Below, in pieces: positions 5,844 to 54,888 of a DNA stretch of 64,000 bases. The translations under genes and the position numbers were made by a program. Location of the stretch: assembly GCA_964627055.1 (NCBI GenBank), contig CAZVGV010000001.1, forward strand, positions 19,620 through 83,619. The letters are read 5' to 3'. Under the pieces are notes generated by a model. The model was not told the origin of the DNA. It did no database searches and worked only from the letters and a program-made list of their open reading frames with translations. How positions within the stretch are numbered: the first letter of the stretch is position 1; each line of letters opens with the position of its first letter. Source of the DNA: an uncultured Gammaproteobacteria bacterium. Its GTDB lineage: Bacteria > Patescibacteriota > Patescibacteriia > Magasanikbacterales > JBBTQS01.

Positions 5844-7055
5844 ATGGGTGTGGCGTCTGTGACTGTACTGCTCATTGGCTTGCCGCACATGAGATTTATT
5901 ACGCCCCCGGCGTATGGCGCCGGGTCAACAAGTCTGTTGTTAGCAATTGTGGGACCCAGTGATGAAGAATCAGCGTACGAGGAAGAGACAGCAGACGCAT
6001 ATGATACGAGTACTCCTGTTGAATATGGATACGGAGCTCAACCTAATGACGCTCATCTTCCGAATGAGGAATATGGCATTGATTATGATCTGGGGTATGA
6101 CAGCGCTAGTGTCTACGCACCAGTGGTAGCACCGGGTGGCACATTACTTCCTTCTGGTTCAGTTGCGACAACGGTACAACCAACGGCACCGTCTCAGGGA
6201 TTTGAAATTAAGAAATACACGGTCGAGAGTGGTGATACGATTTCGAGTATTGCCAAGAAGTTTGGTATTACTCAACAAACAGTCATGGGCGAGAACTCCC
6301 TCACCTCCCGGTCTACATTGCGGGTAGGTCAGGTGCTTACGATTTTGCCAGTTGATGGTGTTGTACACACGGTGAAGCGTGGGGACACGTTGGCAGCAAT
6401 CGCGCGTCAATACGGACTCAAGGCGACTGATGAATTACAGCGTGTAAACCAGCTGAACAGCAGGAGTACGCTTTCGATTGGTCAGTCATTGGTTGTTCCT
6501 GGTGGTGTGAGAACGGTTGCAGTTGCACCAAAGCCTGTGGCAAATGCTGGTTCGAGCGCGAACACCAAGCTACCTCCTCCTGTTACTGGTACGTATGTTC
6601 CAACAAATTCTGGTGAGGATCATACAGATGAATATTACGGTCCAGCCAAATTCCGCAACCAGGCGAAACCAGCGCCAAGTCCGAATGCAAATGCAGCTGG
6701 CATGATTTGGCCAACAACAAGCAAGCGCATCAACCAGTATTTCAGTGGACGCCATTCCGGTCTTGATGTGCATGGATACTATGATAGTCCGTTGTACGCA
6801 TCAGATGATGGTGTGGTGAAGGTGGCAAACTGGCGCACGAATGGATATGGGTTCGGCGTCGACATTGATCATGAAAACGGCATTGTCACTCGATATGGTC
6901 ACGCAAGTCGTCTTTTCGTTCACATTGGTCAGCGCGTGAAGAAGGGTGATGTTATCGGATTTATTGGAACAACAGGTAAATCAACAGGCCCTCACTTGCA
7001 CTTTGAGGTTATTGTGCGCGGCGTGCGCGTGAACCCGTTCACGTATACGCGTTAA
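5844..7055 (+). CDS. LysM-domain M23 family metallopeptidase (peptidoglycan hydrolase)
   Basis: Two LysM repeats (YTVESGDTISSIAKKFGI; HTVKRGDTLAAIARQYGL) and a C-terminal M23 core (HSGLDVHG...HLHFEV). N-terminal TM/signal. Start chosen at MGVASVTVLL; the ORF extends to 5586. Confidence 0.85.
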   Translation: MGVASVTVLLIGLPHMRFITPPAYGAGSTSLLLAIVGPSDEESAYEEETADAYDTSTPVEYGYGAQPNDAHLPNEEYGIDYDLGYDSASVYAPVVAPGGTLLPSGSVATTVQPTAPSQGFEIKKYTVESGDTISSIAKKFGITQQTVMGENSLTSRSTLRVGQVLTILPVDGVVHTVKRGDTLAAIARQYGLKATDELQRVNQLNSRSTLSIGQSLVVPGGVRTVAVAPKPVANAGSSANTKLPPPVTGTYVPTNSGEDHTDEYYGPAKFRNQAKPAPSPNANAAGMIWPTTSKRINQYFSGRHSGLDVHGYYDSPLYASDDGVVKVANWRTNGYGFGVDIDHENGIVTRYGHASRLFVHIGQRVKKGDVIGFIGTTGKSTGPHLHFEVIVRGVRVNPFTYTR

Positions 7056-11736: not shown

Positions 11737-14092
11737 ACGGTGGTTCGTCGTCGACCGTCGATGCCTCGTCTTCCTCATCTTCCACAATCACGTCATCGCC
11801 ATCTTCCTCAATCATGTCCATAGATGGCGCATGCAAATCGGAGGTTGGAATGGAAGAGAGTGGAGCATCAGTTGCATCCATTGTAGCAAGTTCCTTCGCT
11901 GTGATCAAAATTTCACGTGGTTTTGCACCATCACCCGGCCCAATAATGCTGGCCTCCTCGAGTTCGTCCAGAACGCGAGCAGCACGTGCATACCCAAGTT
12001 TGAGTCTGCGCTGCAACAGTGAAGCAGAGGCTTTGCCCTCGCGCACCACGAGATCGCGTGCCTCATCAAAGAGTGGATCGTGATCATCATCCTGGCTGCC
12101 AAAAATAGTAGATCCTGTGCCGCCACTGCTTGGACCCTTTTCTGCGATGCTTAAATCGTATTGAGGTGGTTCGTCTTCCTTCACGTAGTTTGCAACCGCC
12201 TTGAGTTCAGTGTCACTGATGTACGCACCCTGGAGACGCTTTGGTTTTCCGAGGTTAGGACTGAGGAATAACATGTCACCACGGCCAAGGAGCTTTTCTG
12301 CACCAGAGATATCGAGAATAGTTCGTGAGTCTACGAGAGAAGCTACCGAGAAGGCAACACGACCCGGGATGTTGGCCTTGATAAGACCTGTGATAACGTC
12401 GACACTTGGTCGTTGTGTCGCGAGAATCAAGTGGATACCGACGGCGCGTGCCATTTGTGCGAGGCGCACAATGCCGGCTTCAACCTCTTTGGGAGACGTG
12501 GTCATGAGGTCAGCCAACTCGTCGATTACGAACACAATGTATGGAAGTTTTTCCTTAGAATCTGCGTTATAGGAAGCAATGTCTCGCTTGCGTGCTGCTG
12601 CAAGCAGATCGAAGCGACGTTCCATTTCTGCAATCGCCCAGCGTAACGCGTTAATGGTCTTCTTTACATCGGTGATAACCGGTGTGAGCAAGTGTGGAAT
12701 TCCGTTGTAGAGTGTCAGTTCAACACGCTTCGGATCTACGAAGATGAAGCGCAGGGTTTCCGGAGTGTTCTGATAGATAAGACTCAAAATAATGGAGTTG
12801 ATGCACACCGTCTTACCAGAACCAGTTGCACCTGCAACGAGCATGTGTGGCATCTTTGTCAGCTCTGCAAACCATACGTGGCCTCCAACATCCTTACCGA
12901 GCGCGATCATCATGTTGTTGTCGCGATTGCGGTATACGTCAGACTCGAAGAGCTCTTTGAGCGTGACCATGGCAATACGCTGGTTTGGTACTTCAATACC
13001 AACGTACGATTCACCAGGAATTGGTGCTTCGATACGGATTGGATGTGCCGCCAATTCGAGTGCCAAGTCGTTCGAAAGTGCCGTGATGCGCGAGAGCTTG
13101 ATACCGCGCATTGGCTTCACTGCGTACTGCGTAATTGTTGGACCAACGCGGACGTCACCCAATTCAACATCCACACCAAATTGTGCAAGAGTGTCTTTGA
13201 TTGCCTGTGCATTTTTCTTAATATCGCCGGCAGTTGGCTTGCTGGAGTTCGTGGTCAGAATAGAAACAGGTGGAAGACCTTTGGTGCTCACCACAGAATA
13301 AGGGTTTGCGCGCAGAGTGCCCGTCTTGGCTGTTGCAGGCGCCAGGCGAGCTGGTTCGTCATGGGTTTCCTCTGCATCGTCCTCTTCCTCTTCTTCCTCA
13401 CCGTCAGGTTCCTCAGCAGCAGCTTTCTTACTGGCTGCATCACCCAGCTTCTTGTTCTGGAATGCAGGTGCTTCTGCGTCATCATCACCTTCGAAGGCAC
13501 CGATAACGCGAACACGTTCTACTTTGCTAGGCTGTAGTGCCGATCCGAAGAAACGGAATGGTGCGGTAAGAAAACGAAACACGCCGTAGAAAAACTGTGC
13601 AATAGCCGAGAGTGTTGTGTTGAACAAGAAAAGCAGGGCGACGAGGGGCAAAATAATGAGGACAATAAGTGACACCCAAAAATCAAATGCCCGCATGAGC
13701 GGGTAACTGAGCACGAGTCCCACGAGACCACCTCCTTCGCCGCGTAAAGCAGCAGCCACCATGTCTGGATCTGCAAGGAAAAGGTGGATGAGCCCAGAAA
13801 GCGAAAGGGTCATGAGTGCAACGCCGATAATGTGGGTTGCACGATATCCATTCGCATCTTCACGCTCGATAAGTACTGCCCACACCACAAGTAAGAGAGG
13901 CATGATGTACTTTGCAATTCCGAAGAAGAGCGAAAAGAATGAATCTACAAATGTTCCGAGCATGCCTGCGCGACCGAAAAAGCTGAGCGCAGCAAGAATT
14001 GCAATAAGAAAGAGAAAAACCGCGAGAATACCCCGCTTGATTTCCGGATTGAGCGTAATGTTCCATCCAGAAGAAGATCGACGATGTGCCAT
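11702..14092 (-). CDS. ftsK: DNA translocase FtsK/SpoIIIE
   Basis: 796 aa with N-terminal TM helices, an acidic linker, a motor domain with Walker A GATGSGKT and a C-terminal winged-helix gamma domain. Confidence 0.9.
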   Translation of the reverse strand: MAHRRSSSGWNITLNPEIKRGILAVFLFLIAILAALSFFGRAGMLGTFVDSFFSLFFGIAKYIMPLLLVVWAVLIEREDANGYRATHIIGVALMTLSLSGLIHLFLADPDMVAAALRGEGGGLVGLVLSYPLMRAFDFWVSLIVLIILPLVALLFLFNTTLSAIAQFFYGVFRFLTAPFRFFGSALQPSKVERVRVIGAFEGDDDAEAPAFQNKKLGDAASKKAAAEEPDGEEEEEEDDAEETHDEPARLAPATAKTGTLRANPYSVVSTKGLPPVSILTTNSSKPTAGDIKKNAQAIKDTLAQFGVDVELGDVRVGPTITQYAVKPMRGIKLSRITALSNDLALELAAHPIRIEAPIPGESYVGIEVPNQRIAMVTLKELFESDVYRNRDNNMMIALGKDVGGHVWFAELTKMPHMLVAGATGSGKTVCINSIILSLIYQNTPETLRFIFVDPKRVELTLYNGIPHLLTPVITDVKKTINALRWAIAEMERRFDLLAAARKRDIASYNADSKEKLPYIVFVIDELADLMTTSPKEVEAGIVRLAQMARAVGIHLILATQRPSVDVITGLIKANIPGRVAFSVASLVDSRTILDISGAEKLLGRGDMLFLSPNLGKPKRLQGAYISDTELKAVANYVKEDEPPQYDLSIAEKGPSSGGTGSTIFGSQDDDHDPLFDEARDLVVREGKASASLLQRRLKLGYARAARVLDELEEASIIGPGDGAKPREILITAKELATMDATDAPLSSIPTSDLHAPSMDMIEEDGDDVIVEDEEDEASTVDDEPPYDNASKEATSA

Positions 14093-34495: not shown

Positions 34496-35656
34496 ATGTT
34501 GTGGAAATCCGTAGTTCGAAAAGGAGTTGTGTCGGTGATGATGGTGTTTTGCATCACCTCTTCCGCTCTTGCACAAGCGCCAATAGATCCAAAGACGTAC
34601 GTGCCGAAGAATGATGTTTGGTATCGTGCTCAGGTACTTACTGTTGAAAATCAGACGGTAGAAAAGGAAGAGGATGGTACAGAGCGACTCATGCAGCGCG
34701 TGGAAGTGCAGATGAAAAGCGGTGATGAGTCTGGCCGTGTGCACGTGATCAATCATGGTGCAGACTTCGAGTTGCGCGAAGGAATACAGGTAACACCGGG
34801 TGAGTGGGTTGTGGTCATCAAGTCTGAAACATATGATGGCGCGAATCTCTCCGATGTATATCATATTTATGAGCCGTATCGACTGCCAGCGCTTCTTGTT
34901 GCTGGTGGTATTTTTCTCATTGCCGTGGTTTTTTTGGGGCGTTGGAAGGGACTCGGATCAATTGCAGGACTTGCGATTAGTCTTCTGGTATTAGTAAAGG
35001 GTGTTATTCCTTGGATTGTGCATGGAGGTAACCCACTTATCGCCTGTGTTGTGGGAGCTATTGTCATTGCGACCTGTGCACTTTTTGTTGCTCATGGATT
35101 CACGCGCCGTACTGCTATTGCGTGGGTGAGTACTGTTATAGCGTGTGTGCTGGCAGCTGGACTCGCGTACCTATTCATGTGGGCAGCACGCCTGTATGGC
35201 TATGGAAGTGAAGAGGCTTACTTTTTGAAGAGCGGTCTCCTTGCTACATTGGATCTGCGCGGGTTGCTCTTGGGGGGTATTCTCATTGGTTCACTTGGAA
35301 TTCTTGATGATATTACGACAGCGCAGGTTGCTGTAGTAGAGGAGTTACACCATGCAAATACTTCTCTCTCTCGTGCTGAATTGTATCGTCGGGGTCTGTC
35401 TGTGGGGCGTGAGCATATTGCGTCACTTGTGAATACACTTGCGCTTGCGTATACCGGCGCATCATTCCCGCTGATTTTGCTTACGGCAACAAATGAATAT
35501 CAACCGGTTTGGGCTGCGATGAATACAGAAGGTATCGCCGAGGAAATTATTCGAACACTTGTGGGTTCGTGCGCCCTCGTACTTGCAGTACCAATTACAA
35601 CCGCGTTAGCTGCTGGGTACTATGGCTCTCGAGCCATCGTCGAAGAAACGCACTAG
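34496..35656 (+). CDS. YibE/F-family integral membrane protein
   Basis: N-terminal signal and extracytoplasmic domain followed by about seven TM helices with the characteristic Gly-rich helices. Start may be the internal Met at 34538. Confidence 0.65.
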   Translation: MLWKSVVRKGVVSVMMVFCITSSALAQAPIDPKTYVPKNDVWYRAQVLTVENQTVEKEEDGTERLMQRVEVQMKSGDESGRVHVINHGADFELREGIQVTPGEWVVVIKSETYDGANLSDVYHIYEPYRLPALLVAGGIFLIAVVFLGRWKGLGSIAGLAISLLVLVKGVIPWIVHGGNPLIACVVGAIVIATCALFVAHGFTRRTAIAWVSTVIACVLAAGLAYLFMWAARLYGYGSEEAYFLKSGLLATLDLRGLLLGGILIGSLGILDDITTAQVAVVEELHHANTSLSRAELYRRGLSVGREHIASLVNTLALAYTGASFPLILLTATNEYQPVWAAMNTEGIAEEIIRTLVGSCALVLAVPITTALAAGYYGSRAIVEETH

Positions 35657-37756: not shown

Positions 37757-38440
37757 GTGGTAGAGTGGGGACGTATGAAACTCGATCGAAGAGATAGAGC
37801 AAAACACGTGTTGAGCGTCCTCAAAAATGTGTATGCACAAGCGCGTGTTCCTGAGGCCTTCGTGCAGTGGTCCACACCGCTTGAACTTGTGGTGGCAACA
37901 ATGCTTTCTGCGCAGTGCACTGATGTGCGAGTAAATCTCGTGACGCGGGTGTTGTTCCAGAAGTATCGTACTGCTGCAGACTATGCGAACGCATCAGTAC
38001 CCGAGCTCGAACGCATCATTGGTTCGATTACATTCTTTCGTGCGAAGGCGCGGTATCTGCAAGGAATTGGACGTGTGTTGGTAGAGCAATACGGCGGAGA
38101 AGTTCCGAGTACTGTTGCAGCACTGATTACCTTGCCGGGTGTGGCGTATAAGTCAGCACATCTGATTATGGCCAAGGAGTTCGGTGTGCAAACAGGTGTT
38201 GCTGTAGATACGCATGTGACTCGTGTGGCGACACGTCTGGGGCTCTCACGAGGAAAGAACGCGATTGCAATCGCTGCTGACCTAGAGAAAATTTTTGGAA
38301 AAAATGATTGGCTCGACGTAAATGAGTTCATGATTCTGCATGGTCGAGCTGTGTGTCGAGCGCCCGTGCCGAAGTGTGGGGAATGCCCGGTGCGAGACGT
38401 ATGCCCAAGTGCACGACGCACCACTAAGAAGAAGTTGTGA
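37757..38440 (+). CDS. nth: Endonuclease III (DNA-(apurinic or apyrimidinic site) lyase / glycosylase)
   Basis: HhH-GPD motif (LPGVAYKSAHLIMAKEFG...VAVDTHVTRV) and a C-terminal 4Fe-4S cluster loop CRAPVPKCGECPVRDVC. Confidence 0.88.
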   Translation: MVEWGRMKLDRRDRAKHVLSVLKNVYAQARVPEAFVQWSTPLELVVATMLSAQCTDVRVNLVTRVLFQKYRTAADYANASVPELERIIGSITFFRAKARYLQGIGRVLVEQYGGEVPSTVAALITLPGVAYKSAHLIMAKEFGVQTGVAVDTHVTRVATRLGLSRGKNAIAIAADLEKIFGKNDWLDVNEFMILHGRAVCRAPVPKCGECPVRDVCPSARRTTKKKL

Positions 38441-39737
38441 GGCGTTCGAAGAACTGGTGTACGCGTGGATCCATCTTGATATCTGATGTGCGGATCGGTC
38501 TCAGGAGTGCGATTCCCTCAAGGCTCGTACATCGCGAAAGCGCAACATACACCTGACCGTGTGCGAACGCGCCACGGCCGAGGTCGATGACGACACGTTC
38601 GAATGTCTTGCCTTGGCTCTTGTGGATAGTGACAGCCCAGGCAAGACGCAGGGGGAACTGTCTGAATGAACCAACAGGCTCTGTCGTGAGTGCGCTGATG
38701 CTCGCATCGTAGGAGTAGCGGTGGATTTCCCAGCTATGCATAGATACAGTGACTTCATCACCCGTGGTGAGCTCAACGGTTACGGTGCTGGGTACGTGCT
38801 GGTCGTCTTCGCCAATTTTTTTTACGATACCGAGCGAGCCATTCACGTATCCCTCGCTTGCGTCGTTAACAAGTAACATGACTTGCGCACCTTTCTTGAG
38901 CGTGAGTGACTCAGCGGTTGGATACACGCGCGGGTCGAAGGTGCCACTCACTACGGCGCCGAACGTGTGTGCATCCTCATCAATTTCTGCGAGGCGAGCT
39001 GTGTTGATGGCATCAGCTGCAGCATTGGTTGCTGTGAGTACGATCGTGGTTTCATGTTCGGCAAGCGATCCATGATCTTCGATCCACTTGGCGTTGAGAG
39101 CCGCAAGATCTGCGTCAGTTGTGGTGTTGGTGCGAACGCGATTGAGGAGGTCGATGAATGTGGTATCGCGTTGGCGATAGATTTTTTCGAGCTGTACAAG
39201 TTCGAAATCCGTGCGTGCGAGTACATGCGCGTCGAAGAAGAATGGGCTCTTATATACCATGGTAAAGGTTTGCGCCTCCTCAGTACCGGAGACAACCGGC
39301 GGCAATTGGTACAAGTCGCCAATGAAAATCATTTGCACTCCGCCAAACGGCTCCTGCGAGCCGCGGTAGCGTCGCAGAAGTACATCTACGCAGTCGAGCA
39401 GCTCCGCACGCACCATCGACACTTCGTCGATAACAATGGTGTGCAATGCCTTGCAAAGAGATTTAAGATTCGAAGATAATTTTTCTTTGCCTGCCGAAAG
39501 CGGAGTAATGTGCGGAGGGATGCGGAAGAAGGAGTGGATTGTTTGGCCTTGTACATTGAGCGCGGCAACTCCAGTGGGCGCGAGGACAGCAACATTCTTT
39601 TTGGTGTGCAGGCGAAAATGCGTAAGCAGCGTAGATTTGCCGGTGCCTGCACGGCCGGTAATAAAGAGGTGTCGTGACGACGTCTCCATGAGATCGAGCG
39701 CGCGTTGGAATTGTGGATTGAAGTCGAGGGTAGGCAT
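38424..39737 (-). CDS. PIF1/RecD-like SF1B DNA helicase
   Basis: Walker A ITGRAGTGKSTLL, motif II IVIDEVSMV, AAA_30 plus UvrD_C-like organisation, C-terminal TIHKSQGKTF. Confidence 0.8.
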   Translation of the reverse strand: MPTLDFNPQFQRALDLMETSSRHLFITGRAGTGKSTLLTHFRLHTKKNVAVLAPTGVAALNVQGQTIHSFFRIPPHITPLSAGKEKLSSNLKSLCKALHTIVIDEVSMVRAELLDCVDVLLRRYRGSQEPFGGVQMIFIGDLYQLPPVVSGTEEAQTFTMVYKSPFFFDAHVLARTDFELVQLEKIYRQRDTTFIDLLNRVRTNTTTDADLAALNAKWIEDHGSLAEHETTIVLTATNAAADAINTARLAEIDEDAHTFGAVVSGTFDPRVYPTAESLTLKKGAQVMLLVNDASEGYVNGSLGIVKKIGEDDQHVPSTVTVELTTGDEVTVSMHSWEIHRYSYDASISALTTEPVGSFRQFPLRLAWAVTIHKSQGKTFERVVIDLGRGAFAHGQVYVALSRCTSLEGIALLRPIRTSDIKMDPRVHQFFERLTTSS

Positions 39738-39826: not shown

Positions 39827-39901
39827 CGCGGGTATTGTATAACGGCTATTATCTCAGTTTTCCAAACTGATGACGCGGGTTCGACTCCCGCTACCCGCTC
39901 C
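39827..39901 (+). tRNA. tRNA-Gly (anticodon UCC), CCA encoded
   Basis: Manual fold: acceptor GCGGGTA/TACCCGC, anticodon stem TCAGT/ACTGA, loop TTTCCAA (UCC), T-arm GCGGG-TTCGACT-CCCGC, discriminator U as in bacterial tRNA-Gly. Short, atypical D-arm. Confidence 0.75.
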
Positions 39902-40079: not shown

Positions 40080-41543
40080 ATGGAACGATTGTGCAAAATA
40101 TGTGGTGGCTACCATAGTCCAGGTCAGTGCACGAAGAAGGAAAATTCAGCGGAACTTAGTCCACTTGTCTTTGCCCCATTTGCCGAAAAGTATGCGGGTA
40201 AGGCTATTCTTGAATGTGTCCTCATGGCCGCTTCGGAGCTCGATGAGTATGAGTTACTAGTGAAGCAGAAGAGGCTGACCAATCATGAATTAGTTGAATA
40301 TCTTGGACTTATCGGATTTTTTGAAACCTATCCGGCAATATTGCAAGATGCAAACCAACAGTACAAAAAATACACAGAACAGCTAGACAAAGAATTGACT
40401 CGTAGTTATTCGGATCCGGCGGTTCGTAGAAGAAAAAAATACGACGGATTTGTGAGTGCGTTGTCGGCACCTGCAATCCTTGACCGCCCCGTTCTAAAAG
40501 AGGTCGTGGACGAACTTTTCTTTATCCAGAGAGATGAGATGGTGACAGCATGGCTCAATCAGATAGAACTTCCCAAACGAAGTATTTCTAAGGAAGGCGT
40601 CATCGATGTGACGCAGAAGGTTTTTCGTGAATGCGCCAAATGGTCGATCGCTTCGCAACAGAATAGAGATGATCTTTCGGCATATATTTTTCTCCGTAAG
40701 GTTGCCGAGGCATATGCATTTGCTTTAAATTTACAACAGAGCGGGGCGTACTCTGGAGAATTTGATACCGTAGCAGCGGAAGAAGCGAGCGATCTGCGAG
40801 TGGATGTTTTGAGTACAAGATTGCGGCCTGGCGTGTATGAATGTCAGGTGCCAGATGGAGTGCCTTGGATCACAGTCATGTATCTGGTGGTCCCCGAAGA
40901 GGGGAAGGAGCCATTTACTTGGGCTGGTGTAGAGGTAGAGTTAGCAGGTGACCCACAGGACAGTTCCAAGCTCACGCATACGTCTTGGCCTATTAGTGAA
41001 CTTACCAGAGAGTTGGGAGTCATGGGTTCTAAAATCACGACGTTGGGTTCGCTGTTTGAAAGGTATGGTCTAGAAAAAGAATATCAGCAATTTCAGCATG
41101 AAATATTTCGGTCGATTGCGTCCCTTATTGAATCATACCCAGAATGTATCTTAGATAGACAGCAAGAAACAGATGAATTGGAGAGAGCACTTGTTCAAGA
41201 ACCTGTACAGGAAGAAGATATGGATGCGCTACAGGTATCTCTTCCACGGGCTCAGTATAAAGAAGATGCGTTAGTGGCAGAGCGCCAACAGAAAAAGCAT
41301 GAGATCTTTCGTGAGATGCGAAACCTCTCTTTTGAGAGGACCATCAAAGCATTTCAGAGACTTGGAGTAGAAGTCAGGTACGGTGGCCGTCACATCAAGT
41401 TGGTGAAAATGGAAAACGGGCGAGAGCGTACCGTTCCGTTCATGAATCGTCATAGTAAGGGAATACATTATATGGCTCGTGTTGTGAGACAAGCCATCAA
41501 CATCTTGGGTCTGGATGAGCAGGAATTTGTTTCGGCGCTTTGA
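40080..41543 (+). CDS. Large hypothetical protein (487 aa) with an N-terminal CxxC...C zinc-ribbon-like motif and a C-terminal HicA/YcfA-like (mRNA interferase toxin fold) domain
   Basis: C-terminal 70 aa (SFERTIKAFQRLGVEVRYGGRHIKLVKMENGRERTVPFMNRHSKGIHYMARVVRQAINILGL) match the HicA pattern (K..L...G....R..GSHH......G....TVP.H...I....L..IL.Q.GL). Lower GC than flanks. An extended -10 TGTTATGAT lies upstream. Confidence 0.55.
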   Translation: MERLCKICGGYHSPGQCTKKENSAELSPLVFAPFAEKYAGKAILECVLMAASELDEYELLVKQKRLTNHELVEYLGLIGFFETYPAILQDANQQYKKYTEQLDKELTRSYSDPAVRRRKKYDGFVSALSAPAILDRPVLKEVVDELFFIQRDEMVTAWLNQIELPKRSISKEGVIDVTQKVFRECAKWSIASQQNRDDLSAYIFLRKVAEAYAFALNLQQSGAYSGEFDTVAAEEASDLRVDVLSTRLRPGVYECQVPDGVPWITVMYLVVPEEGKEPFTWAGVEVELAGDPQDSSKLTHTSWPISELTRELGVMGSKITTLGSLFERYGLEKEYQQFQHEIFRSIASLIESYPECILDRQQETDELERALVQEPVQEEDMDALQVSLPRAQYKEDALVAERQQKKHEIFREMRNLSFERTIKAFQRLGVEVRYGGRHIKLVKMENGRERTVPFMNRHSKGIHYMARVVRQAINILGLDEQEFVSAL

Positions 41544-41971: not shown

Positions 41972-42043
41972 GCGGGTATTGTATAACGGCTATTATCTCA
42001 GTTTTCCAAACTGATGACGCGGGTTCGACTCCCGCTACCCGCT
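41972..42043 (+). tRNA. Second, identical copy of tRNA-Gly (UCC); CCA not encoded (CCG)
   Basis: 72-nt body identical to 39827..39898. Together with 22 bp of upstream sequence it forms a 97-bp perfect direct repeat (39804..39900 and 41949..42045). Confidence 0.7.
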
Positions 42044-47355: not shown

Positions 47356-47973
47356 CTATGGAACGTATACCTCTTTGACCTGCACCACAGAGCCACGGAG
47401 CAACGTTAATCTGACAGGCATGATGCCATGCTTTTGGCGTATTGCCGGATCAGTGGAGATGTCGATAAAAAAATCCAGATCAGATTGGTCGAACATTCGC
47501 TTCGGAAGCGTGCCAGCGTAGAGCTCGGTCTCTATAAATCGCATTCCGCTTGCCAAGGGAAGCTCAATAGTCGCTGGGCTGTTATTGCGAATGTAGAAAC
47601 CACTTGGCGCACAAGAAAGTGGCTCAGGCGTACCTGCGGTTTCACACACGCCGTCTTCGATCATGGCAGTATCTGCCGTGTCTCCATCAAACCACTGAGC
47701 TACATCCAAGATAAGATGTGGTTGACCAGTACTTGTGCTTACTCCCATAACAAAACCAAAAGGTGCTGTAGAATCAAATGTCTCGATTACGCCTGCCACC
47801 TCTTCGGTTTCAACTGATGACTCTTCTATGACAATGGGCACGGTCGTTGTTGAGGTTGTACTCGCAGACGGGGTCGTTGTCACTGTACCCGTATGTTTCA
47901 ATGAAATGATGGCGCCGGTAAGGACAAACGTGAGGAAAAGACAGAGCACTACAAGGAGTTGAGTAGGTTTCAT
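47356..47973 (-). CDS. Hypothetical secreted/membrane-anchored protein
   Basis: N-terminal signal/TM MKPTQLLVVLCLFLTFVLTGAIISL and a Thr-rich linker. No known domain. Confidence 0.45.
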   Translation of the reverse strand: MKPTQLLVVLCLFLTFVLTGAIISLKHTGTVTTTPSASTTSTTTVPIVIEESSVETEEVAGVIETFDSTAPFGFVMGVSTSTGQPHLILDVAQWFDGDTADTAMIEDGVCETAGTPEPLSCAPSGFYIRNNSPATIELPLASGMRFIETELYAGTLPKRMFDQSDLDFFIDISTDPAIRQKHGIMPVRLTLLRGSVVQVKEVYVP

Positions 47974-47985
47974 ACGTTGCGTAAA

Positions 47986-48501
47986 CTAGTGCATCTCAGT
48001 GTTTTTGATTTTGGTAATGAGTGGCTCTTGTTCGATGCGCAACATGAACTGCTCAGTGAGTCTGGTATCAAAAGTCATGTGGTGCGGACGGTGTGATGAT
48101 GCGATCGCAATACCGCGAGCTTCGAGTGCTGCGACAATTCGCGGTACATTTCCGTCAGATGGATACACTTCAACGTGATCGAAGCCTCGTAACTGGCTGA
48201 GATCTGGTTTCTGATCAGACAATTCGATGTATTCTATTGGTCCGCATGCAGATTGCAGCGGAATAGTCAGCCTGCAAATCGCGATTCGACGTTGCGAGAT
48301 GATGGATTGATAGAGAAATGCTGAACGACCCTCTAGAAGTGTGCGCATTGCCTCAAATTCTGCCGTGGTTGAACACTTGAATCCAAGATGGTCGGCTCGG
48401 ACATCTTGCGTTGTGTTGTTTGTAATGACGAACCTGTCTAATTCCTGCAGAACCTCTTGTGCATCTTGGAGAATGTCAGTCCATGAAGGGGTATAGAGCA
48501 T
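47986..48501 (-). CDS. VOC (glyoxalase/bleomycin-resistance/dioxygenase) superfamily protein
   Basis: Paired beta-alpha-beta-beta-beta modules with candidate metal ligands in ADHLGFKC and FDHVEVY. Confidence 0.4.
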   Translation of the reverse strand: MLYTPSWTDILQDAQEVLQELDRFVITNNTTQDVRADHLGFKCSTTAEFEAMRTLLEGRSAFLYQSIISQRRIAICRLTIPLQSACGPIEYIELSDQKPDLSQLRGFDHVEVYPSDGNVPRIVAALEARGIAIASSHRPHHMTFDTRLTEQFMLRIEQEPLITKIKNTEMH

Positions 48502-48529
48502 ATGCCTCTAGTGTAGCACGCACAGAGAA

Positions 48530-49018
48530 CTATTGCTCAGTTGGTTGTTCAGAAATTGTAAGGATTTTGCCGCTGGTATCGAGGGAGAGAATAACTTCAA
48601 GGGTATAAGGTGATGAGGTGCGATATACAAGATCGCGAAATGATTGGAGCGTCATTGATTCGTCGAAGTGTGGTCCGTGATCAGGAGTGGTTGCGTAGCT
48701 GCCGTCCGGGGAGCGTTCATAGATTTGCAGGTCCACAGAAGAGGCGAGGGGGTACCATACTACAGCACGAGTCCCGTCAGTGGGTTCGATACCCAATTGT
48801 AGGACATCTCCAACTTCTTGTATCTCGTAAACAAAGCCACGCACGGAACTGAGCTGCACAAGTGTGCTTGTGGACTGTGTTGTTGTTTGTGGTAGTTCTG
48901 CCAGCGTCATTTGCTGTCTGGTTTGTGGAGAATCAAACCGTGGCGTGGAGATCCCGAAGTACACTCCAACTCCAACGAGCAAAAACAAAAGAGATATCGT
49001 AATCATTCGTATAACCAT
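48530..49018 (-). CDS. Hypothetical membrane-anchored protein (162 aa)
   Basis: N-terminal TM MVIRMITISLLFLLVGVGVYF. No known domain. Confidence 0.4.
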   Translation of the reverse strand: MVIRMITISLLFLLVGVGVYFGISTPRFDSPQTRQQMTLAELPQTTTQSTSTLVQLSSVRGFVYEIQEVGDVLQLGIEPTDGTRAVVWYPLASSVDLQIYERSPDGSYATTPDHGPHFDESMTLQSFRDLVYRTSSPYTLEVILSLDTSGKILTISEQPTEQ

Positions 49019-49058
49019 AGTACGGCCAGTATAGCGTATTCGTGGTAAGGCCGCACTG

Positions 49059-49182
49059 TTGACAGTGCAAATGATTTGCAGTAGTATCTATTTGCAGTTC
49101 AGTTGCAATACAGTTTCCGCTGTGAAAGCGGGGCTGCAATGGTTCGTAAAGATATTCTATTCGTGATATGCAAATTGCATTT
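49059..49182 (+). promoter_or_regulatory. Consensus promoter (TTGACA-17-TAGTAT) with Fur-family-like 7-1-7 operator TGCAAAT-G-ATTTGCA in the spacer, plus further ATTTGCA/TGCAAAT heptamers at 49090..49110 and over the start codon (49169..49182)
   Basis: -35 at 49059..49064 and -10 at 49082..49087. Perfect palindrome at 49066..49080 with the same 7-1-7 architecture as Fur/Zur/PerR boxes. At least four copies of the heptamer lie within about 115 bp. Confidence 0.5.
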
Positions 49183-50139
49183 GTAGGTAAGGGTGGTTCG
49201 GGTAAGACGACGCTTTGTACGTTGTTTATTCGATCGCTATTGGCAACAGGGAAGCAGGTGCTGGCACTTGATGCGGATATTAACATGCATCTCGCCCAGG
49301 CCTTGGGCGTTCCAGGTACGTCGAGCAAAGCATTGTCTTCACCGGACAATGCAGTCTTCGTGCGGGAGTATCTTCGGGGTACCAATCCGCGCATTCCATC
49401 AGCAGAAGCCTTCCTCAAGACGACGCCTCCAGGTCGAGGGTCGCGGAGTGTTCGTGTAGAAGGCGCACACCCGATTATTCTTGCGCTTGGTACCGCATTT
49501 GACTCCAATGGCTGGCTGTTGCATGTAGGTACATACGAAAAAGAGGATATTGGCACAAGTTGTTACCACGGAAATCTATCGGTGGCAGAAAATCTGTTGT
49601 CGCATGCGGTGACCGATGCCGAACACTGGGTGGTCACTGATATGGTTGCTGGCACTGATGCGTTTTCAAATACGCTTCATGCACAATTTGACCATATTTT
49701 CCTGGTAGTTGAGCCAACCCCAGAAGGCGTTGGGGTGTTTCGGCAATATAAGGAATTGGCAATGGAGGCGCAGGTTTGGGATCGAATCTCAGTTATTGGC
49801 AACAAGATAGAGACACCAGAAGATGCAGCGTATCTCAAGCAACATGTTGGTGATGCGCTTGTTGCATGTGTGCCGGCACTTCGTGCAATTCGGAGTGCTC
49901 GGCAAAATGATGAACTGCTCTTTCCAGAAGCACTTGGCTTGTTAGGATTGTACGCAGATCTTATTGCACGTGTTGCAGCTACGGCAACACATAAGGATAG
50001 TAAGCTGCCACGCCTTTATGAACTCCATCGTGCATACGCGAGCCAACCGTACGCGCAAAAAATGTTTGGAGACCTCGTGGGGCAGATCGATGACGCGTTC
50101 TCGTACGACTCCTTTGCTCCGTACTATGCTACGCGTTAG
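49168..50139 (+). CDS. MinD/ParA-superfamily P-loop ATPase of the CooC-like metallochaperone type
   Basis: N-terminal IAFVGKGGSGKTTL...VLALDADIN, then DMVAGTDAFS...FLVVEPTPEGV resembling CooC. Candidate metal-binding C-Y-H (GTSCYHGN) where CooC carries CxC. Confidence 0.55.
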   Translation: MQIAFVGKGGSGKTTLCTLFIRSLLATGKQVLALDADINMHLAQALGVPGTSSKALSSPDNAVFVREYLRGTNPRIPSAEAFLKTTPPGRGSRSVRVEGAHPIILALGTAFDSNGWLLHVGTYEKEDIGTSCYHGNLSVAENLLSHAVTDAEHWVVTDMVAGTDAFSNTLHAQFDHIFLVVEPTPEGVGVFRQYKELAMEAQVWDRISVIGNKIETPEDAAYLKQHVGDALVACVPALRAIRSARQNDELLFPEALGLLGLYADLIARVAATATHKDSKLPRLYELHRAYASQPYAQKMFGDLVGQIDDAFSYDSFAPYYATR

Positions 50140-51556
50140 ACCGGCACTTCACACACATGTCTCGACACTACTAGCTCAGCAGCCATCATTGTTGGAGGAG
50201 TTGGTTCATGGGATGGGTTCGCCATTGAATGTGGTTTTTCCTACCCACGTACAACAGACAGTCGCATCGTTTGATTCGGTACTCCGAGAAGAGGGTGTGG
50301 AAGGTGCGGTGTATGTTTCACACAAGCCGAATCGCTCAGTAGCAGTGAAGCGACAGCTCGCAACAATACATGCCGGTGCTGACGTGTCATCGCATGAGGA
50401 GTTGGTACAAGCGTTGGCGGCGGGGTATACAGGAGATCGTATTATCGCAACCGGGATCAAGAACGCCTCGTACATTCGATTAGCACTCGAGCATCGTGTA
50501 ACACTTATTGCGGATAGTATTGATGAGATTGTGCGTATTGCAGCAGCTGCGCGGGAGCGTGAATATGTGGGGTCTGTGTTGATTCGGTTGAATCATTTCT
50601 CCTCACCTCATGTTCGAATGCAGTCCCAGGAAACGCGATTCGGTATACGTGTGGAGGAAGTCACATCGGCGATTGCTGTATTGGTTAGGGAGCAGCGGTA
50701 CGTACGATTTGTTGGTTTTGCATTTCATTTCTCCAAACCAACCGCACAGGAGCGTATCGCTGCAGTAGAGCAAACTCTTGCGGCGCATATGGAGGCGGTT
50801 GCGGAAGGGTTGAGTCCGACAGTTATCGATATTGGTGGAGGTTTTCCAGTGGCGATGGCTGCTTCTGTTGAGGAATGGAATACGTATACCACTGCACTCA
50901 AACAGTCGGTCATACGTCCAGAGATCTCATTGACGTGGAATGATCATGGATTGGGGTATCGTCGTGATGCATCGGGCGCACTGGCAGGCGGTCCTGTGTT
51001 TGAAGAACAAGTGCCAGATCGGATTGGAGCAGAGGATTTGCGAGCAACATTGCGCTTGGCATTACCGTCATTTCAAGAGCAATCTGTAGCAGATGTCCTG
51101 CGAGATTTGATGCTCACGATTTGGGTTGAACCAGGTCGTGCAATATTCGATCAAGTGGGTTGTACTGTTGCACGAGTTTTGGATGTGAAGCATTCCGCGC
51201 ATGGTGAAACAGTCGTGGTATTGGATATGAATTATTCGAATCTGAATGCGACTGAATTTACGTATATGGTTGATCCATTGTTTGTTGGATCTCAATCATC
51301 GGATCAGACGGATGCGCCAACAGGCATGTACTTCGCGGGCAATTTATGTCTGAGTGACATGATCATTCGGCGTAAGGTATTTATGTCACGCGTGCCGAGA
51401 CCGGGGGAGCTCATGCTGTTTGCTAACACTGCAGCGTATCGTATGGACTTTGTGGAGAGCTCTGTGTTGCTACAACCTACTGCAGCAAAGGTTGCGATGT
51501 GGCCTGACGGCACACAGTGGCGATGGTGCATAGATAGTAAGTATGAACCGAAATAA
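50128..51556 (+). CDS. Fold-type III PLP-dependent decarboxylase (Orn/DAP/Arg decarboxylase family, LysA/SbnH-like)
   Basis: Alanine-racemase-like TIM barrel plus beta-sandwich; HVSHKPNR contains the candidate PLP lysine region, and GGGFPV and EPGRAIF motifs are present. Start overlaps the upstream gene's stop (ATG 50128); the ORF extends to 49964. Confidence 0.65.
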
Positions 51557-51561
51557 CAGGT

Positions 51562-52887
51562 ATGATCTATCGAAAAATTACCGAGGGAATAGGGAACACA
51601 CCACTCTTGTGGATTGATCCAGCAGTTCATGGGTTGCGTAACGTAGATGTGTACGCGAAGTTGGAGTACATGAATCCTTTTGGTTCTGTAAAGGATCGAA
51701 TTGCTTGGGGAATCGTGGCGCCAGACATTGCATCAATACAGGAAAAGAAACAGACAATTATTGAGATGTCGAGTGGCAACACAGCGAAGGCGCTTCAGGC
51801 GGTTGCGTCCATTCATGGTGTTTCGTTCAAGACCATTACAAATCGCATTAAGGTGCCTGAGCAGAAGGCGATTCTTCGTATGCTTGGTGCACACATCGAA
51901 GAATTGCCCGGGACAACTGACTGCTATGATCCTTCAGATCCCAATGATCCGTACGTGTATATCCAGCGCGAGATTGCGAGTGCAGGGGATGCTGCGTACT
52001 TTACGTCGCAATACACCAATGAACGGAATTTGGAGACGCACTACGCAACTACAGGCGAAGAGATTCTGCGTGACGTCCCTGTGGTGGATTATTTTTTTGG
52101 TGGTGTTGGAACCAGCGGATCTACGCGCGGTGTAGCACAGAAGCTACTGGAGCGAAATCCAAACCTCAAGACTGTTGGTATCGCAGCATCCAAACACGAC
52201 TTCATCCCCGGGATTCGAAATCAGGACGAACTCATGGAAGTGGGGCTGTTTGATCCGGCATTCTACGCACAAATGCAAATGGTTCGCTCGTCAGATGCTG
52301 TCGATCGAACTCTTGAATTGGTCCGAGGTACCGGTATGATGTGCGGCCCAACCACTGGAGCGTGCTATGAAGGCATGCTTTCCTATCTGCGTCCGATTGA
52401 TGCAACGCTGACGGAGCGAAAGGTGGCGGTGTTCATTGCGTGTGACCGATTGGAGTGGTATGTCTCGTATGTGAGAGAGCGCCGACCGGATATCTTTCAG
52501 GAAGCAGCACCAAAACAAAGTATCCATGCACTTTCAGATGAACAAATCGCGGGAGCAAATGTGCTCATGCCAGAACAGGCGCTTGAGTGGATCGGGACAC
52601 ACCATCCATTGATCATCGATATTCGAGGGCACCAAGCGTACCATTTACTGCATATTCGGGATTCGTTGAACTTGCCAGATGCTCATCTGCGGCCGCTTAT
52701 TGAGAATGGTGATCCGTTCCCGAAGGAGCGTCCGTTGTTGTTGGTATGCCCACGTGGTGAACGATCGCGTGTGTATGCTGCGTATCTTGCTACGCGAGGG
52801 TACAATGCATTCTCGCTACAGGGCGGCTTGTATGGGTGGAAAGATACAGGATTGCCACTACACACGCTTACCTATTGTGCCGTATAG
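51562..52887 (+). CDS. Fold-type II PLP enzyme (cysteine synthase CysK/SbnA-like) fused to a C-terminal rhodanese domain
   Basis: AKLEYMNPFGSVKDR (PLP-Lys), SSGNTAKALQ and the GVGTSGST glycine loop. C-terminal ~110 aa rhodanese with active-site loop LLVCPRGERSRV. Confidence 0.7.
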   Translation: MIYRKITEGIGNTPLLWIDPAVHGLRNVDVYAKLEYMNPFGSVKDRIAWGIVAPDIASIQEKKQTIIEMSSGNTAKALQAVASIHGVSFKTITNRIKVPEQKAILRMLGAHIEELPGTTDCYDPSDPNDPYVYIQREIASAGDAAYFTSQYTNERNLETHYATTGEEILRDVPVVDYFFGGVGTSGSTRGVAQKLLERNPNLKTVGIAASKHDFIPGIRNQDELMEVGLFDPAFYAQMQMVRSSDAVDRTLELVRGTGMMCGPTTGACYEGMLSYLRPIDATLTERKVAVFIACDRLEWYVSYVRERRPDIFQEAAPKQSIHALSDEQIAGANVLMPEQALEWIGTHHPLIIDIRGHQAYHLLHIRDSLNLPDAHLRPLIENGDPFPKERPLLLVCPRGERSRVYAAYLATRGYNAFSLQGGLYGWKDTGLPLHTLTYCAV

Positions 52888-52925
52888 GTGGACGTACCAG
52901 AGCACTCAGGGTATACTGGCGCCGT

Positions 52926-53309
52926 ATGGCAAGCATTATTGAGCATGTGAAGGAGTCCGGTGCCAAGCTCACTGGTCCACGCCGTGAGATTATCGAGTAC
53001 ATCGAGAATCTCGACGGCATTTTTGCTGCTGCGCAGATCGCGAAGGCGCTCAAGCCGATCGATACGGTTTCGGTGTACCGCACACTGCAGTTGCTCAAGG
53101 ACATCGACATGATCCACCCGAGCATTGTATTCGAAGGCGAACAGTATTATGAATTGCACGGACACGAAGATCATCATCATCACGCCGTATGCACGAGCTG
53201 CCGCGAGGCGCGGTGTGTTGAATGCAAGATCTCTGTTTCCAAATTAAGAGGGTTTACGGTAAACGACCACAATCTGGTGCTCACTGGATTGTGCAATTCC
53301 TGCAAATAG
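52926..53309 (+). CDS. Fur-family metalloregulator
   Basis: N-terminal winged helix (LTGPRREIIEYIENL...) and a C-terminal metal-binding HxH...CxxC...CxxC region (HEDHHHHAVCTSCREARCVEC). Confidence 0.75.
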   Translation: MASIIEHVKESGAKLTGPRREIIEYIENLDGIFAAAQIAKALKPIDTVSVYRTLQLLKDIDMIHPSIVFEGEQYYELHGHEDHHHHAVCTSCREARCVECKISVSKLRGFTVNDHNLVLTGLCNSCK

Positions 53310-53379
53310 TTGCAGATTCCGGTAGGTGTGGTAGAGTCGTCGCGGTTTCGGCATGCAACGCCGAAAAAGGAGAACCACC

Positions 53380-53601
53380 ATGGTATTCAAACAAGGAAAT
53401 CGGGTCAAGGTTCAGCCGAGGTGCTGCTTCGATGGACCGCCTGGTCTCGATCCGGTTCTGGTCAGGAACCGTGACCTTGGTGACGTTGAGGGCAACTACC
53501 TCGATCGTCTCAGCACCGCACCCGACTACCACATCGTGATCACCGTCGGTGGGAAACGCGCGGTATATCACACGACGGAACTCACGCACGCACACCCATG
53601 A
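53380..53601 (+). CDS. Small hypothetical protein (73 aa), GC3-rich
   Basis: Strong Shine-Dalgarno AAAGGAG 8 nt upstream of the ATG; followed by a terminator. Possibly a small beta-barrel protein; no firm family. Confidence 0.4.
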   Translation: MVFKQGNRVKVQPRCCFDGPPGLDPVLVRNRDLGDVEGNYLDRLSTAPDYHIVITVGGKRAVYHTTELTHAHP

Positions 53602-53633
53602 CAACTGGGCGTGAGTCGGCAGACACACGAAAC

Positions 53634-53672
53634 GGCCTGCAGCGGTAAACCCACTGCAGGCCGTCGTCTTTT
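53634..53672. terminator. Bidirectional intrinsic terminator (GGCCTGCAG/CTGCAGGCC stem)
   Basis: 9-bp stem, 12-nt loop, then GTCGTCTTTTC; A-rich on the other side. Confidence 0.5.
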
Positions 53673-53688
53673 CAAATGGAAATAAGAA

Positions 53689-54888
53689 CTACTTGATCAC
53701 GACTTTGCCCAAGAACTGTTCGATGAATGGAACGCTTGGGAATTTGCCCATATCGATTTCATCCTTGTCAGCCTTGCGGATGGAATGTGGTGTATGGAAG
53801 TAGAATCCAACAAGGTTGTTCGAAGAAGGTGACTTCGTGAATGCGAAGGAGAGTAACTTCCATTCAACGGTCTTGCCCTTATTCCCAGTGCAGGACCGAT
53901 AGAACGTCAGGAACGTGTATGCCTGGCCATTGTAGGTTGCTTCGTTGACAGTTGGCTCGCTCACCCCGCAAACACGATCACGATACTTCTTGAATGCGCC
54001 TTCTGACTCTGTCTTCATGTTCTTGTAGAAGAGATCAGCGAATTCAGCCGCGGTCATTGCGCGGTCGTCTTCGTCTGCACTTTCGAATCCTTCAATGTGC
54101 TTGATGTTCACCGTCTGTGCCTTGGGGTTTGCGGTTTCGATCTCACGAGTTTTGCCACCACTGCTCAATGCTGCAACCCAAGCATTAGGGATCTTGAGGA
54201 GCCCCTTGCCGTTGTCGTCGAGTACGCCAAACGGTCGAACGGGGAGGGAGACTGATGCGATGCTTGGTGTGCGCTTCGCAATGAAGGCTGCATTCTTTTC
54301 GTCGTAGAACATCCATCCGTCAGCGTCTACGCGAGTGATATCTTGCATTTCTTTGCGGCAATTGTAACGAGCAGATGCCTCGTAGGATCCGTTAAATGAG
54401 TATGTATACCCGGCACGGAATCCTTCGTCGTAGAATTTATTGCCTGCACCAGCTCCGCGAGGCTTGTCATTGAAAATCTGAATGATCTGTGCGAGGTCGT
54501 TCTTGGCAATGTCATAGCCAGTGAACCAGCCGCGATCATAGTTCTTGCCTTTGCTGCCGATGATAATGCGAGAATTGTCGAGGCAGGCAAGTGGGAGCTT
54601 CGCATCTGTCATGACACGGAATCGATAGGCTCCTGTGCCAGTAGGTTCTTTAAACTTATCTGCGCCGTAGTAGCCTTGTAGCACGATTCCTTCTGGTGCT
54701 GGAAACTTGCCTTTGTAATTCGCTTCCTTGAATGATTTGACAGTGATGCCTTTGTTGAGGACGCGCGCTTCTCCTGGCCGAACCGGATTAGGTGCTGCAG
54801 CTGGTGCGGCGAACGCAACCATCGATGGAGCCATGAGCGCAACGGTAAGTGCACCAACAGCAATCACCGAAGCTGATCGTGTATGCAT
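53689..54888 (-). CDS. Secreted hypothetical protein (399 aa), Lys-rich
   Basis: Clear signal peptide MHTRSASVIAVGALTVALMAPSMVAFAAPAAAP. No recognisable domain. Slightly AT-richer than the flanks. Confidence 0.5.
   Translation of the reverse strand: MHTRSASVIAVGALTVALMAPSMVAFAAPAAAPNPVRPGEARVLNKGITVKSFKEANYKGKFPAPEGIVLQGYYGADKFKEPTGTGAYRFRVMTDAKLPLACLDNSRIIIGSKGKNYDRGWFTGYDIAKNDLAQIIQIFNDKPRGAGAGNKFYDEGFRAGYTYSFNGSYEASARYNCRKEMQDITRVDADGWMFYDEKNAAFIAKRTPSIASVSLPVRPFGVLDDNGKGLLKIPNAWVAALSSGGKTREIETANPKAQTVNIKHIEGFESADEDDRAMTAAEFADLFYKNMKTESEGAFKKYRDRVCGVSEPTVNEATYNGQAYTFLTFYRSCTGNKGKTVEWKLLSFAFTKSPSSNNLVGFYFHTPHSIRKADKDEIDMGKFPSVPFIEQFLGKVVIK

Follow-up and report, generated by a model that had tools for sequence, protein, structure and literature searches.

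We analysed a 64-kb stretch of DNA (64,000 nucleotides, hereafter the window) on contig CAZVGV010000001.1 of an uncultured member of the Patescibacteria. Its plus strand carries an operon for a CooC-like ATPase, a decarboxylase, a PALP–rhodanese fusion enzyme and a Fur-family regulator, preceded by a promoter with a palindromic operator (Table 1). A preliminary description of this DNA, made from the letters alone, had named these four proteins, and family searches agree with it, returning a CbiA/MinD-fold ATPase, an Orn/diaminopimelate (DAP)-type fold-III pyridoxal 5′-phosphate (PLP) decarboxylase, the Pfam PALP and Rhodanese domains in the fusion enzyme and a FUR-family protein that passes PF01475 with 58.4 bits (Pfam gathering cut-off 23.1).

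The promoter is the top sigma-70-like site across positions 48500–54000, its two hexamers matching the consensus at 10 of 12 positions. As had been described, TTGACA, a 17-nt spacer and TAGTAT enclose a perfect palindrome, box 1, all of which we located. The sequence TGCAAATGATTTGCA occurs in a single exact copy in the whole window. Perfect palindromes of the 7-1-7 form number 6 there against about 4 expected, and heptamer counts, proposed earlier as a check on the motif, show no significant excess within the window (19 against 13.1 expected). Because the frequency of 7-1-7 palindromes is near chance, we draw significance from the position of the box in the promoter and from its conservation across genomes. 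The assignment of the box to the 7-1-7 architecture of Fur, Zur and PerR operators fits, but the conserved core, TGCAA-N5-TTGCA, equally has the 6-5-6 geometry of a Nur box (gTGCAA-ATGAT-TTGCAg when the window box is read in this way). At least three further heptamers had been reported close by; we find just two exact ones, ATTTGCA at 49090 and TGCAAAT at 49169. The second, which covers the ATPase start codon, is missing from the closest relatives, L090 and L091, whose start reads ATGAAAAT; because it is not kept there, it is probably a coding coincidence. The true second operator element is predicted to be a degenerate box, box 2 (TGCAGTTCAGTTGCA). Near-boxes at 17927 and 39323 both lie within long open reading frames (ORFs) and were treated as chance. 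The latter (TGAAAATCATTTGCA, 39323–39337) has one mismatch to box 1 and is probably fortuitous inside the minus-strand ORF 38424–39737; its left half resembles what we take to be the actinobacterial Zur half-site.

We next compared the window with fetched loci that encode proteins related to the ATPase or to the fusion enzyme (labelled L0xx), scanning them for TGC[AG]A-N5-T[TC]GCA. In the zone up to 530 bp before homologous ATPase genes (23 loci, 11.8 kb) the pattern occurs 15 times, compared with 3 times in the 377 kb that remain. Boxes are thus about 160 times as dense before orthologous genes as elsewhere, over more than 12 genomes, and two of the three outside copies precede fur genes (L020 and L005). 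Homologous boxes were found in L090, L091, L092, L005 (two), L007, L011, L020–L024, L026, L027, L038, L044 and L087. Seven promoters, spread over six genomes, have the box precisely in the interval from a TTGACA-like −35 to the −10 hexamer, and TTGACA or TTGACT stands at the equivalent place in six further boxed promoters of related genomes. Both boxes are kept at equal spacing in the syntenic relatives L090 and L091, where TGCAAACAATTTGCA and TGCAAATAAGTTGCA, respectively, occupy the place of box 2 and the enzymes are just 45–66% identical to those of the window. The clostridial Firmicute Alkaliphilus metalliredigens (CP000724, L087) has a box, TGCAAATTACTTGCA, at 6530–6544, 53 nt before its ATPase gene; together with a near-box in front of transporter genes there (see below), this suggests that the regulator–operator pair is old and may also cover a nickel/cobalt importer in that genome.

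Of the 30 distinct related loci that have the ATPase plus a PALP–rhodanese gene or box, 18 carry an adjacent Fur-family gene. Autoregulation by the operon-encoded Fur homologue had been offered as the simplest model, and phylogenetic footprinting strongly backs the operator on which it would act. Because boxes, promoter position and fur adjacency are conserved across loci, occlusion of RNA polymerase by the operon's own regulator, with negative autoregulation, is a model that comparison of the loci makes well supported. The window's Fur homologue shares 93–95% protein and 82–86% DNA identity with positions 7353–7736 of L090/L091; identities of the other products to these loci are 53–56% for the ATPase, 45–46% for the decarboxylase and 64–66% for the PALP–rhodanese enzyme. 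Either selection constrains the regulator far more than it does its targets, or the regulator has been exchanged recently.

Table 1 Features of the operon and its promoter (window coordinates)
Feature	Position	Strand	Remarks
−35 hexamer TTGACA	49059–49064	+	sigma-70-like match
Operator box 1, TGCAAATGATTTGCA	49066–49080		perfect palindrome inside the −35/−10 spacer
−10 hexamer TAGTAT	49082–49087	+	17-nt spacer from −35
Operator box 2 (predicted), TGCAGTTCAGTTGCA	49093–49107		degenerate; just 3′ of the −10 hexamer
Leader hairpin CCGCT-GTGAA-AGCGG	49117–49131	+	within a leader insertion of about 46 nt
CooC-like deviant-Walker-A ATPase	49168–50139	+	323 aa
Fold-III PLP decarboxylase	50126–51556	+	476 aa
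PALP–rhodanese fusion	51562–52887	+	441 aa; PALP domain CysM/SbnA-like
Fur-family regulator (fur)	52926–53309	+	127 aa
73-aa ORF	53380–53601	+	AAGGAG ribosome-binding site upstream
Intrinsic terminator	53632–53675	+	hairpin 53632–53664; 11-bp G+C-rich stem, then GUCGUCUUUUC

The genes for the ATPase, decarboxylase and PALP–rhodanese enzyme form a co-linear cassette in Patescibacteria, in Nanohaloarchaea and Woesearchaeota (DPANN archaea) and in Micavibrio, and also in Micromonospora, Jiangellaceae, Kineosporiaceae, Alkaliphilus, Natranaerovirga and a cyanobacterium. The pair that does not vary between subtypes is the ATPase with the PALP–rhodanese enzyme. The fourth position is usually taken by a cysteine desulfurase gene, which is of the SufS type in most loci and of the IscS/DndA type in the cyanobacterium and is missing from the window, L004, L011 and L029. 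We rejected an assignment of this Aminotran_5 gene as a phosphoserine aminotransferase supplying O-phosphoserine, as it scores as a SufS/IscS-type cysteine desulfurase. Metal functions dominate the neighbourhood of the cassette, with fur in many loci, an AdcA/YcdH-type zinc ATP-binding cassette (ABC) importer in L005, COG0523 cobW and NikR in L004, NikR and a ZnuA-like ABC system in L029, MerC-like proteins in L011 and L088, and ArsP_1 with DUF1980 in L007 and L025. Exporters of the major facilitator superfamily (MFS) or the multidrug and toxic compound extrusion (MATE) family and a DdaF-like ATP-grasp ligase are also among the neighbours (L003, L088 and L089); in Micromonospora and a cyanobacterium the cassette is flanked by genes for MFS exporters, and in Natranaerovirga the gene for a MATE exporter is found two genes further downstream, on the opposite strand. 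Genes of the YibE/F family adjoin the cassette or fur in L005, L020, L038 and L044; the window has a YibE/F-family membrane protein gene 13.5 kb from the operon (34496–35656), with no box upstream. A full-text search of the literature for the gene combination turned up no paper describing the cassette.

The ATPase has the deviant Walker A motif of the MinD/NifH type (GKGGSGKT, invariant), and its best match, by profile (E 1e-20) as well as by fold, is CooC1 (PDB 3KJE). CooC1 is a nickel chaperone. The residues C132-Y-H134 of the ATPase align on the C-Y-C nickel motif of CooC1, so that sequence, fold and alignment on 3KJE support the earlier proposal of a CooC-like ATPase with C-Y-H in place of CxC. 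Together with H41, H146 and H287, these residues are invariant in 86 of 86 fetched homologues (the window's own included), and by analogy with CooC1 a Cys2His2 metal site would form in the ATPase dimer. A BioD/CobQ-like ligase was considered and set aside on the basis of the signature lysine of the MinD/NifH type and the match to CooC. We found no CO dehydrogenase (CODH) or acetyl-CoA synthase genes in the loci examined. Stand-alone paralogues, about 40% identical, occur in Streptomyces, Kitasatospora, Amycolatopsis and others (L031–L086); they keep GCYH, TPPG and the histidines and have unrelated but conserved neighbourhoods, for example near acetyl-CoA synthetase in S. griseus. The Streptomyces and Kitasatospora paralogues differ in signature residues and neighbours and were not counted as cassette members. 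The family of Cys/His ATPases, itself uncharacterised, therefore extends beyond the cassette.

The fusion enzyme keeps the PLP lysine and the SSGNT loop, and K44, C121 (in a DPxDPNDP loop), C294 and the rhodanese cysteine C396 are invariant. Its scores fall far short of the NCBIfam cut-offs for cysK (117.6 versus 350.95), cysM (135.6 versus 394.2) and cysKM (150.6 versus 344.15); against the SbnA family TIGR03945 it reaches 148.9 bits (cut-off 349.95), about equal to its cysKM score. By sequence, the PALP domain comes closest to Mycobacterium tuberculosis CysM (E 7e-29). An AlphaFold model of the fusion enzyme (pLDDT, the predicted local distance difference test, 87) has 8H4Q and 8H4H as its top Foldseek matches (E 1e-27), which the entry titles in the fold search identify as aspergillomarasmine A (AMA) synthase. 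A single synthase assembles the aminopolycarboxylate AMA from O-phosphoserine and aspartate, and zinc, nickel and cobalt are the only metals that AMA binds (PMC8319579). Another fungal PALP–rhodanese enzyme, Fda4, joins O-phosphoserine to alanine by C–N β-substitution (PMC12751119). The preliminary description had cited SbnA and SbnH of staphyloferrin B as a precedent; AMA synthase, with its PALP and rhodanese domains, or chemistry of the ethylenediaminedisuccinic acid (EDDS) type is closer. It was right that no synthetase for siderophores independent of non-ribosomal peptide synthesis (NIS synthetase) and no SbnB is present, and neither an NIS synthetase nor an SbnB-type dehydrogenase was found in the operon or in the related loci with listed genes.

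A sister subtype consists of the ATPase and a divergent PALP–rhodanese enzyme, without the decarboxylase; fur and the box are again present. Its PALP–rhodanese enzyme matches AMA synthase (8H4Q) with E 4e-89. Such AMA synthase homologues occur in Patescibacteria and in an Iainarchaeum metagenome-assembled genome (L020–L027, L038 and L076; for example, L025 8963–10417), directly 3′ of the CooC-like ATPase gene and, in 8 of 10 loci, under a Fur homologue or box. By sequence, these loci are candidates for the synthesis of AMA-like chelators in prokaryotes. In both bacterial subtypes a (D/E)C-x-DP-x-DP loop carries an invariant cysteine, and the rhodanese cysteine, likewise invariant, sits in a six-residue CxxGxR loop. 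Within the rhodanese/Cdc25 superfamily, a loop of six residues is of the sulfurtransferase type.

The decarboxylase belongs to a family distinct from LysA, SpeA and ornithine decarboxylase. All fold-III catalytic motifs are kept, and 16 homologues share HKxNxS, IGGG, EPG, GNLCLxxD and NTAxYxMDF. In the PDB it comes closest to BtrK and DAP decarboxylases, at no better than E 1e-11, and it scores 113.4 bits against the LysA model TIGR01048 (cut-off 297.9). Neither PLP enzyme is therefore a housekeeping LysA, CysK or CysM, as had been anticipated.

We propose, with a probability of roughly 0.55, that the operon serves under metal starvation, is repressed by the Fur-family regulator that it encodes and makes a small metal-binding ligand; most likely it helps microbes with very small genomes to cope with a shortage of zinc (or nickel/cobalt). 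The suggestion of a metallophore or metal-cofactor route thereby gains support from the fold match to AMA synthase and from the metal regulators and transporters that adjoin the cassette in many phyla; the nature of the product is our deduction from these. When metal is plentiful, a metal-loaded dimer of the regulator would occupy both TGCAA-N5-TTGCA boxes and exclude RNA polymerase; under metal shortage it would leave both boxes and the operon, including fur, would be transcribed. The PALP domain may form an aminoacrylate from an activated serine (O-phosphoserine) and carry out a β-replacement of the kind that CysM, SbnA and AMA synthase perform. Its nucleophile could be an amine, as in the chemistry of AMA synthase, SbnA and Fda4, or sulfur relayed through a persulfide on the rhodanese cysteine, which is invariant. 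Loss of the α-carboxylate through the decarboxylase would next leave a 2-aminoethyl unit, a step like that proposed for chelators of the EDDS type, and give an N,N or N,S ligand. The CooC-type ATPase may dimerize in an ATP-dependent manner and, at its Cys2His2 site, hand metal to or receive it from a partner. The frequent desulfurase and the invariant cysteine argue for an involvement of sulfur, in the canonical cassette at any rate. What the data show directly are the sequence features, the conservation of boxes and cassette, the metal-related neighbours and the fold relationships. Strong, comparative evidence bears on the regulatory part alone, and we infer the chemical steps, which metal is involved, what the ATPase does and the binding of the regulator. 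More tentatively, the Cys/His ATPase, AMA-synthase-like enzyme, decarboxylase and desulfurase might together constitute a new and widespread metal-trafficking system that makes an aminoethyl ligand and loads or unloads it.

Several observations weigh against a ligand-making operon for zinc. The window's fusion enzyme shares just 22–23% identity with AMA synthase and is as close to the sulfhydrylase CysM. No ATPase is required to make AMA, and the role given to the ATPase is thus a guess; nor does C–N chemistry of the AMA or EDDS type need a desulfurase, yet this is the usual fourth gene of the cassette. The window operon has neither an exporter nor an importer for a secreted chelator. A profile built from 14 regulator homologues matches Fur, PerR, Zur and Nur structures with 68–111 bits (Zur 71–96) and leaves them unseparated. 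The core TGCAA-N5-TTGCA has the geometry of the Nur (nickel) box, NikR is encoded near two archaeal loci (L004 and L029), and the Alkaliphilus cassette adjoins CbiMQO as well as MntR with a manganese-type ABC system; there, a near-box, TGCAACTCATATGCA, precedes the downstream cbiM-cbiQ-cbiO genes at about 11753–11767.

Which metal the regulator senses bears directly on this. Single-sequence, NCBIfam and profile searches gave no separation between Zur, Fur, PerR and Nur; none of the NCBIfam Zur models matched the window regulator, and Nur is among its top PDB matches. The motif HHHH-x2-CxxC and a second CxxC are invariant in the 14 cassette-linked homologues. For zinc we count the lack of histidine at the positions of Fur His32, PerR His37 and Nur His33, the predicted Cys/His nature of the ATPase site, and the COG0523 cobW gene that adjoins the archaeal cassette L004. 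In the related locus L005, although not in the window, the operator precedes zinc-uptake genes: a second boxed promoter (TTGACT-box-TATAAT, with the box in a like position) drives fur-adcA-adcC-adcB-yibEF, and this AdcA matches the zinc proteins YcdH and AdcA with E 1e-62 and 1e-54, compared with about 1e-31 for manganese proteins. AMA is known as a zinc metallophore. A scan of the actinobacterial loci for the actinobacterial Zur box gave weak matches with three mismatches (L008) or none; TGCAA-N5-TTGCA differs from what we take to be the consensus of that box. On balance we lean towards zinc as the cognate metal, with nickel or cobalt a lesser prospect and any other metal slightly lesser still.

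A regulator of the Nur type, sensing nickel or cobalt, would make the cassette one for acquisition or insertion of these metals, with the ATPase as a nickel chaperone. This is possible but unlikely. The Streptomyces coelicolor Nur box is tTGCaa-N5-ttGCAA, a 6-5-6 arrangement, and the nickel site of Nur comprises His70, His72 and His126 (PMC2691836). The core of the window box equals that box, and L022 has two exact TTGCAA-CAAAA-TTGCAA copies; the ATPase's resemblance to a nickel chaperone in sequence and fold, NikR near the archaeal cassettes, CbiMQO with its near-box in Alkaliphilus and the binding of nickel and cobalt by AMA-type ligands all point the same way. However, the nickel site is not conserved. 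Aligned to 3EYY, the window regulator has Pro65, Ile67 and an asparagine, and histidines occur solely at positions neighbouring the Nur nickel-site residues. The box controls a zinc importer operon in L005, the ATPase has CxH instead of CxC, and no nickel enzyme (CODH, urease or hydrogenase) is encoded in the loci examined.

Less probable again is a role in sulfur amino-acid or thiol metabolism, in which the fusion enzyme would be a CysM-like O-phosphoserine sulfhydrylase that takes sulfur from its own rhodanese persulfide, loaded by the desulfurase, the decarboxylase would yield an amine of the cysteamine, taurine or thialysine type, and the regulator would be a PerR- or Fur-like stress regulator. 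The match of the PALP domain to M. tuberculosis CysM, which receives sulfur from a protein carrier, is consistent with this, as are the invariant rhodanese cysteine in its sulfurtransferase-type loop, the filling of the fourth position by non-orthologous SufS-type or IscS-type desulfurases, and the relationship of the decarboxylase to DAP decarboxylase, lanthionine being an isostere of DAP. Using cysteine sulfur to remake cysteine would, however, be futile, and four loci, the window among them, have no desulfurase. Nor would thiol metabolism explain why a CooC-like ATPase and regulators and transporters of metals are constant partners, and the enzyme of the sister subtype is plainly homologous to AMA synthase.

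Maturation of a metal–sulfur cofactor or of a metalloenzyme, after the pattern of CooC and CODH or of LarC/LarE and the nickel-pincer cofactor, is a long shot. In it, sulfur would come from the desulfurase and rhodanese and metal would be inserted by the ATPase; the PLP enzymes would either build the client or be the client themselves. Metallochaperone-type ATPase, rhodanese and desulfurase are indeed combined in the cassette, the ATPase and PALP–rhodanese enzyme are inseparable across subtypes, and the invariant C121, in its Asp/Pro-rich loop, and C294 could bind metal. No candidate client metalloenzyme is encoded nearby, however, exporter genes adjoining several cassettes suggest a secreted product, and we know of no PLP enzyme of these folds that needs a metal–sulfur cofactor. 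Finally, a palindrome that is a chance feature of a strong promoter, with the operon constitutive, would agree with the near-random palindrome and heptamer counts in the window but has next to no probability, being refuted, as far as sequence evidence reaches, by the clustering of boxes before orthologous genes, their conserved position within promoters and the retention of both boxes in relatives with strongly diverged coding sequences.

The preliminary description had made fur the last gene of the operon. The 73-aa ORF, however, sits between fur and the terminator hairpin, and it may be the last cistron; it has no family match and is not homologous to the ORFs at the equivalent place in L090–L092. 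The terminator is stable (−35.5 kcal/mol over a 91-nt stretch, z = −4.3). Alignment of the N termini of seven homologues places the decarboxylase start at ATG 50126 and not further downstream, giving a 14-nt overlap with the end of the ATPase gene, and the fur start is supported by the 93–95% identical orthologues. The leader (49108–49167) is about 46 nt longer than in L090/L091, and the insertion carries the hairpin together with CTGCAAT; being lineage-specific and absent from these relatives, the hairpin is probably without function. No riboswitch or leader family was matched in an Rfam E-value scan of 48900–53800. Across the fur stop codon lies a box-like palindrome with a 4-nt instead of a 5-nt spacer (TGCAAATAGTTGCA, 53301–53314); it could alternatively fold as a CTGCAA/TTGCAG hairpin and may be a weak site, an attenuator or chance.

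A divergent gene (48530–49018, minus strand), encoding a 162-aa membrane-anchored protein, starts 41 nt from the −35 hexamer, and the operator could also control its transcript. L090 has a 162-aa gene without a Pfam match at the corresponding position and strand. Beyond the divergent gene lie a YecM-like gene and another uncharacterised gene (47986–48501 and 47356–47973). G+C content is flat, 0.47–0.58 over 44–58 kb, and a foreign origin of the operon was not adopted. Elsewhere in the window, two tRNA genes with equal Rfam scores (58.6 bits; 39828–39899 and 41972–42043) flank ORF 40080–41543 and may be a duplicated tRNA around an inserted gene.

Patescibacteria, DPANN archaea and the predatory Micavibrio have a pared-down metabolism, and how they acquire trace metals is essentially unknown. 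A tightly repressed biosynthetic operon in minimal genomes, shared with free-living phyla, points to an important function. AMA reverses metallo-β-lactamase resistance. If the product is an AMA- or EDDS-like or thio-amine chelator, clinically interesting fungal chemistry would extend to many prokaryotes, and the ATPases with their Cys/His site would form a new branch, specific to a client, among metallochaperones of the CooC type. The metal-trafficking system, if real, would represent a new class of zinc, nickel or cobalt metallophore or metallocofactor with a sulfur- or nitrogen-containing ligand, and the first such pathway in ultra-small episymbiotic microbes, under an ancient Fur-family lineage with a Nur-like 6-5-6 operator. 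The operator motif provides a handle for predicting regulons in hundreds of uncultured genomes, and culturable carriers (Micavibrio aeruginosavorus, Alkaliphilus metalliredigens and Micromonospora nigra) make the idea directly testable.

The pieces of the system are of known kinds: a Fur-family operator, a CooC-like chaperone and PLP chemistry like that of AMA synthase, SbnA and CysM. What is undescribed is their combination, the Cys/His ATPase, the spread over prokaryotic phyla and the presence in minimal-genome episymbionts. CooC1, the nickel-inserting ATPase for CODH, shares the deviant Walker A GKGGxGKT and a metal motif at the equal position, but is only 21% identical to the window ATPase, which has C-Y-H where CooC1 has C-Y-C and about 70 extra C-terminal residues including the invariant His287. 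CysM and SbnA have the PLP lysine and SSGNT loop and score similarly, whereas the window protein carries a fused rhodanese; M. tuberculosis CysM uses the CysO thiocarboxylate and Staphylococcus aureus SbnA pairs with SbnB, and neither partner is present in the window. AMA synthase of Aspergillus oryzae (8H4H/8H4Q) has the same fold-II PALP domain and C-terminal rhodanese-like domain with a loop cysteine, but the fungal enzyme is without the invariant cysteine loop (D/E)C-x-DP-x-DP of the bacterial enzymes, which are paired with a decarboxylase, the ATPase and often a desulfurase.

EDDS biosynthesis has been proposed to use a CysK/SbnA-like enzyme and a DAP-decarboxylase-like enzyme. Zur regulons sometimes have two boxes per promoter and include zinc importers, COG0523 proteins and chelator biosynthesis (PMC6103462). 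The Zur-controlled metallophore clusters (EDDS of Amycolatopsis japonicum, coelibactin and the Cnt/Zrm opine zincophores) resemble the operon in having a Fur-family repressor and palindromes that overlap the promoter; they differ in that the window has no SbnB-like enzyme, and the cassette adds the ATPase, the rhodanese and usually a desulfurase.

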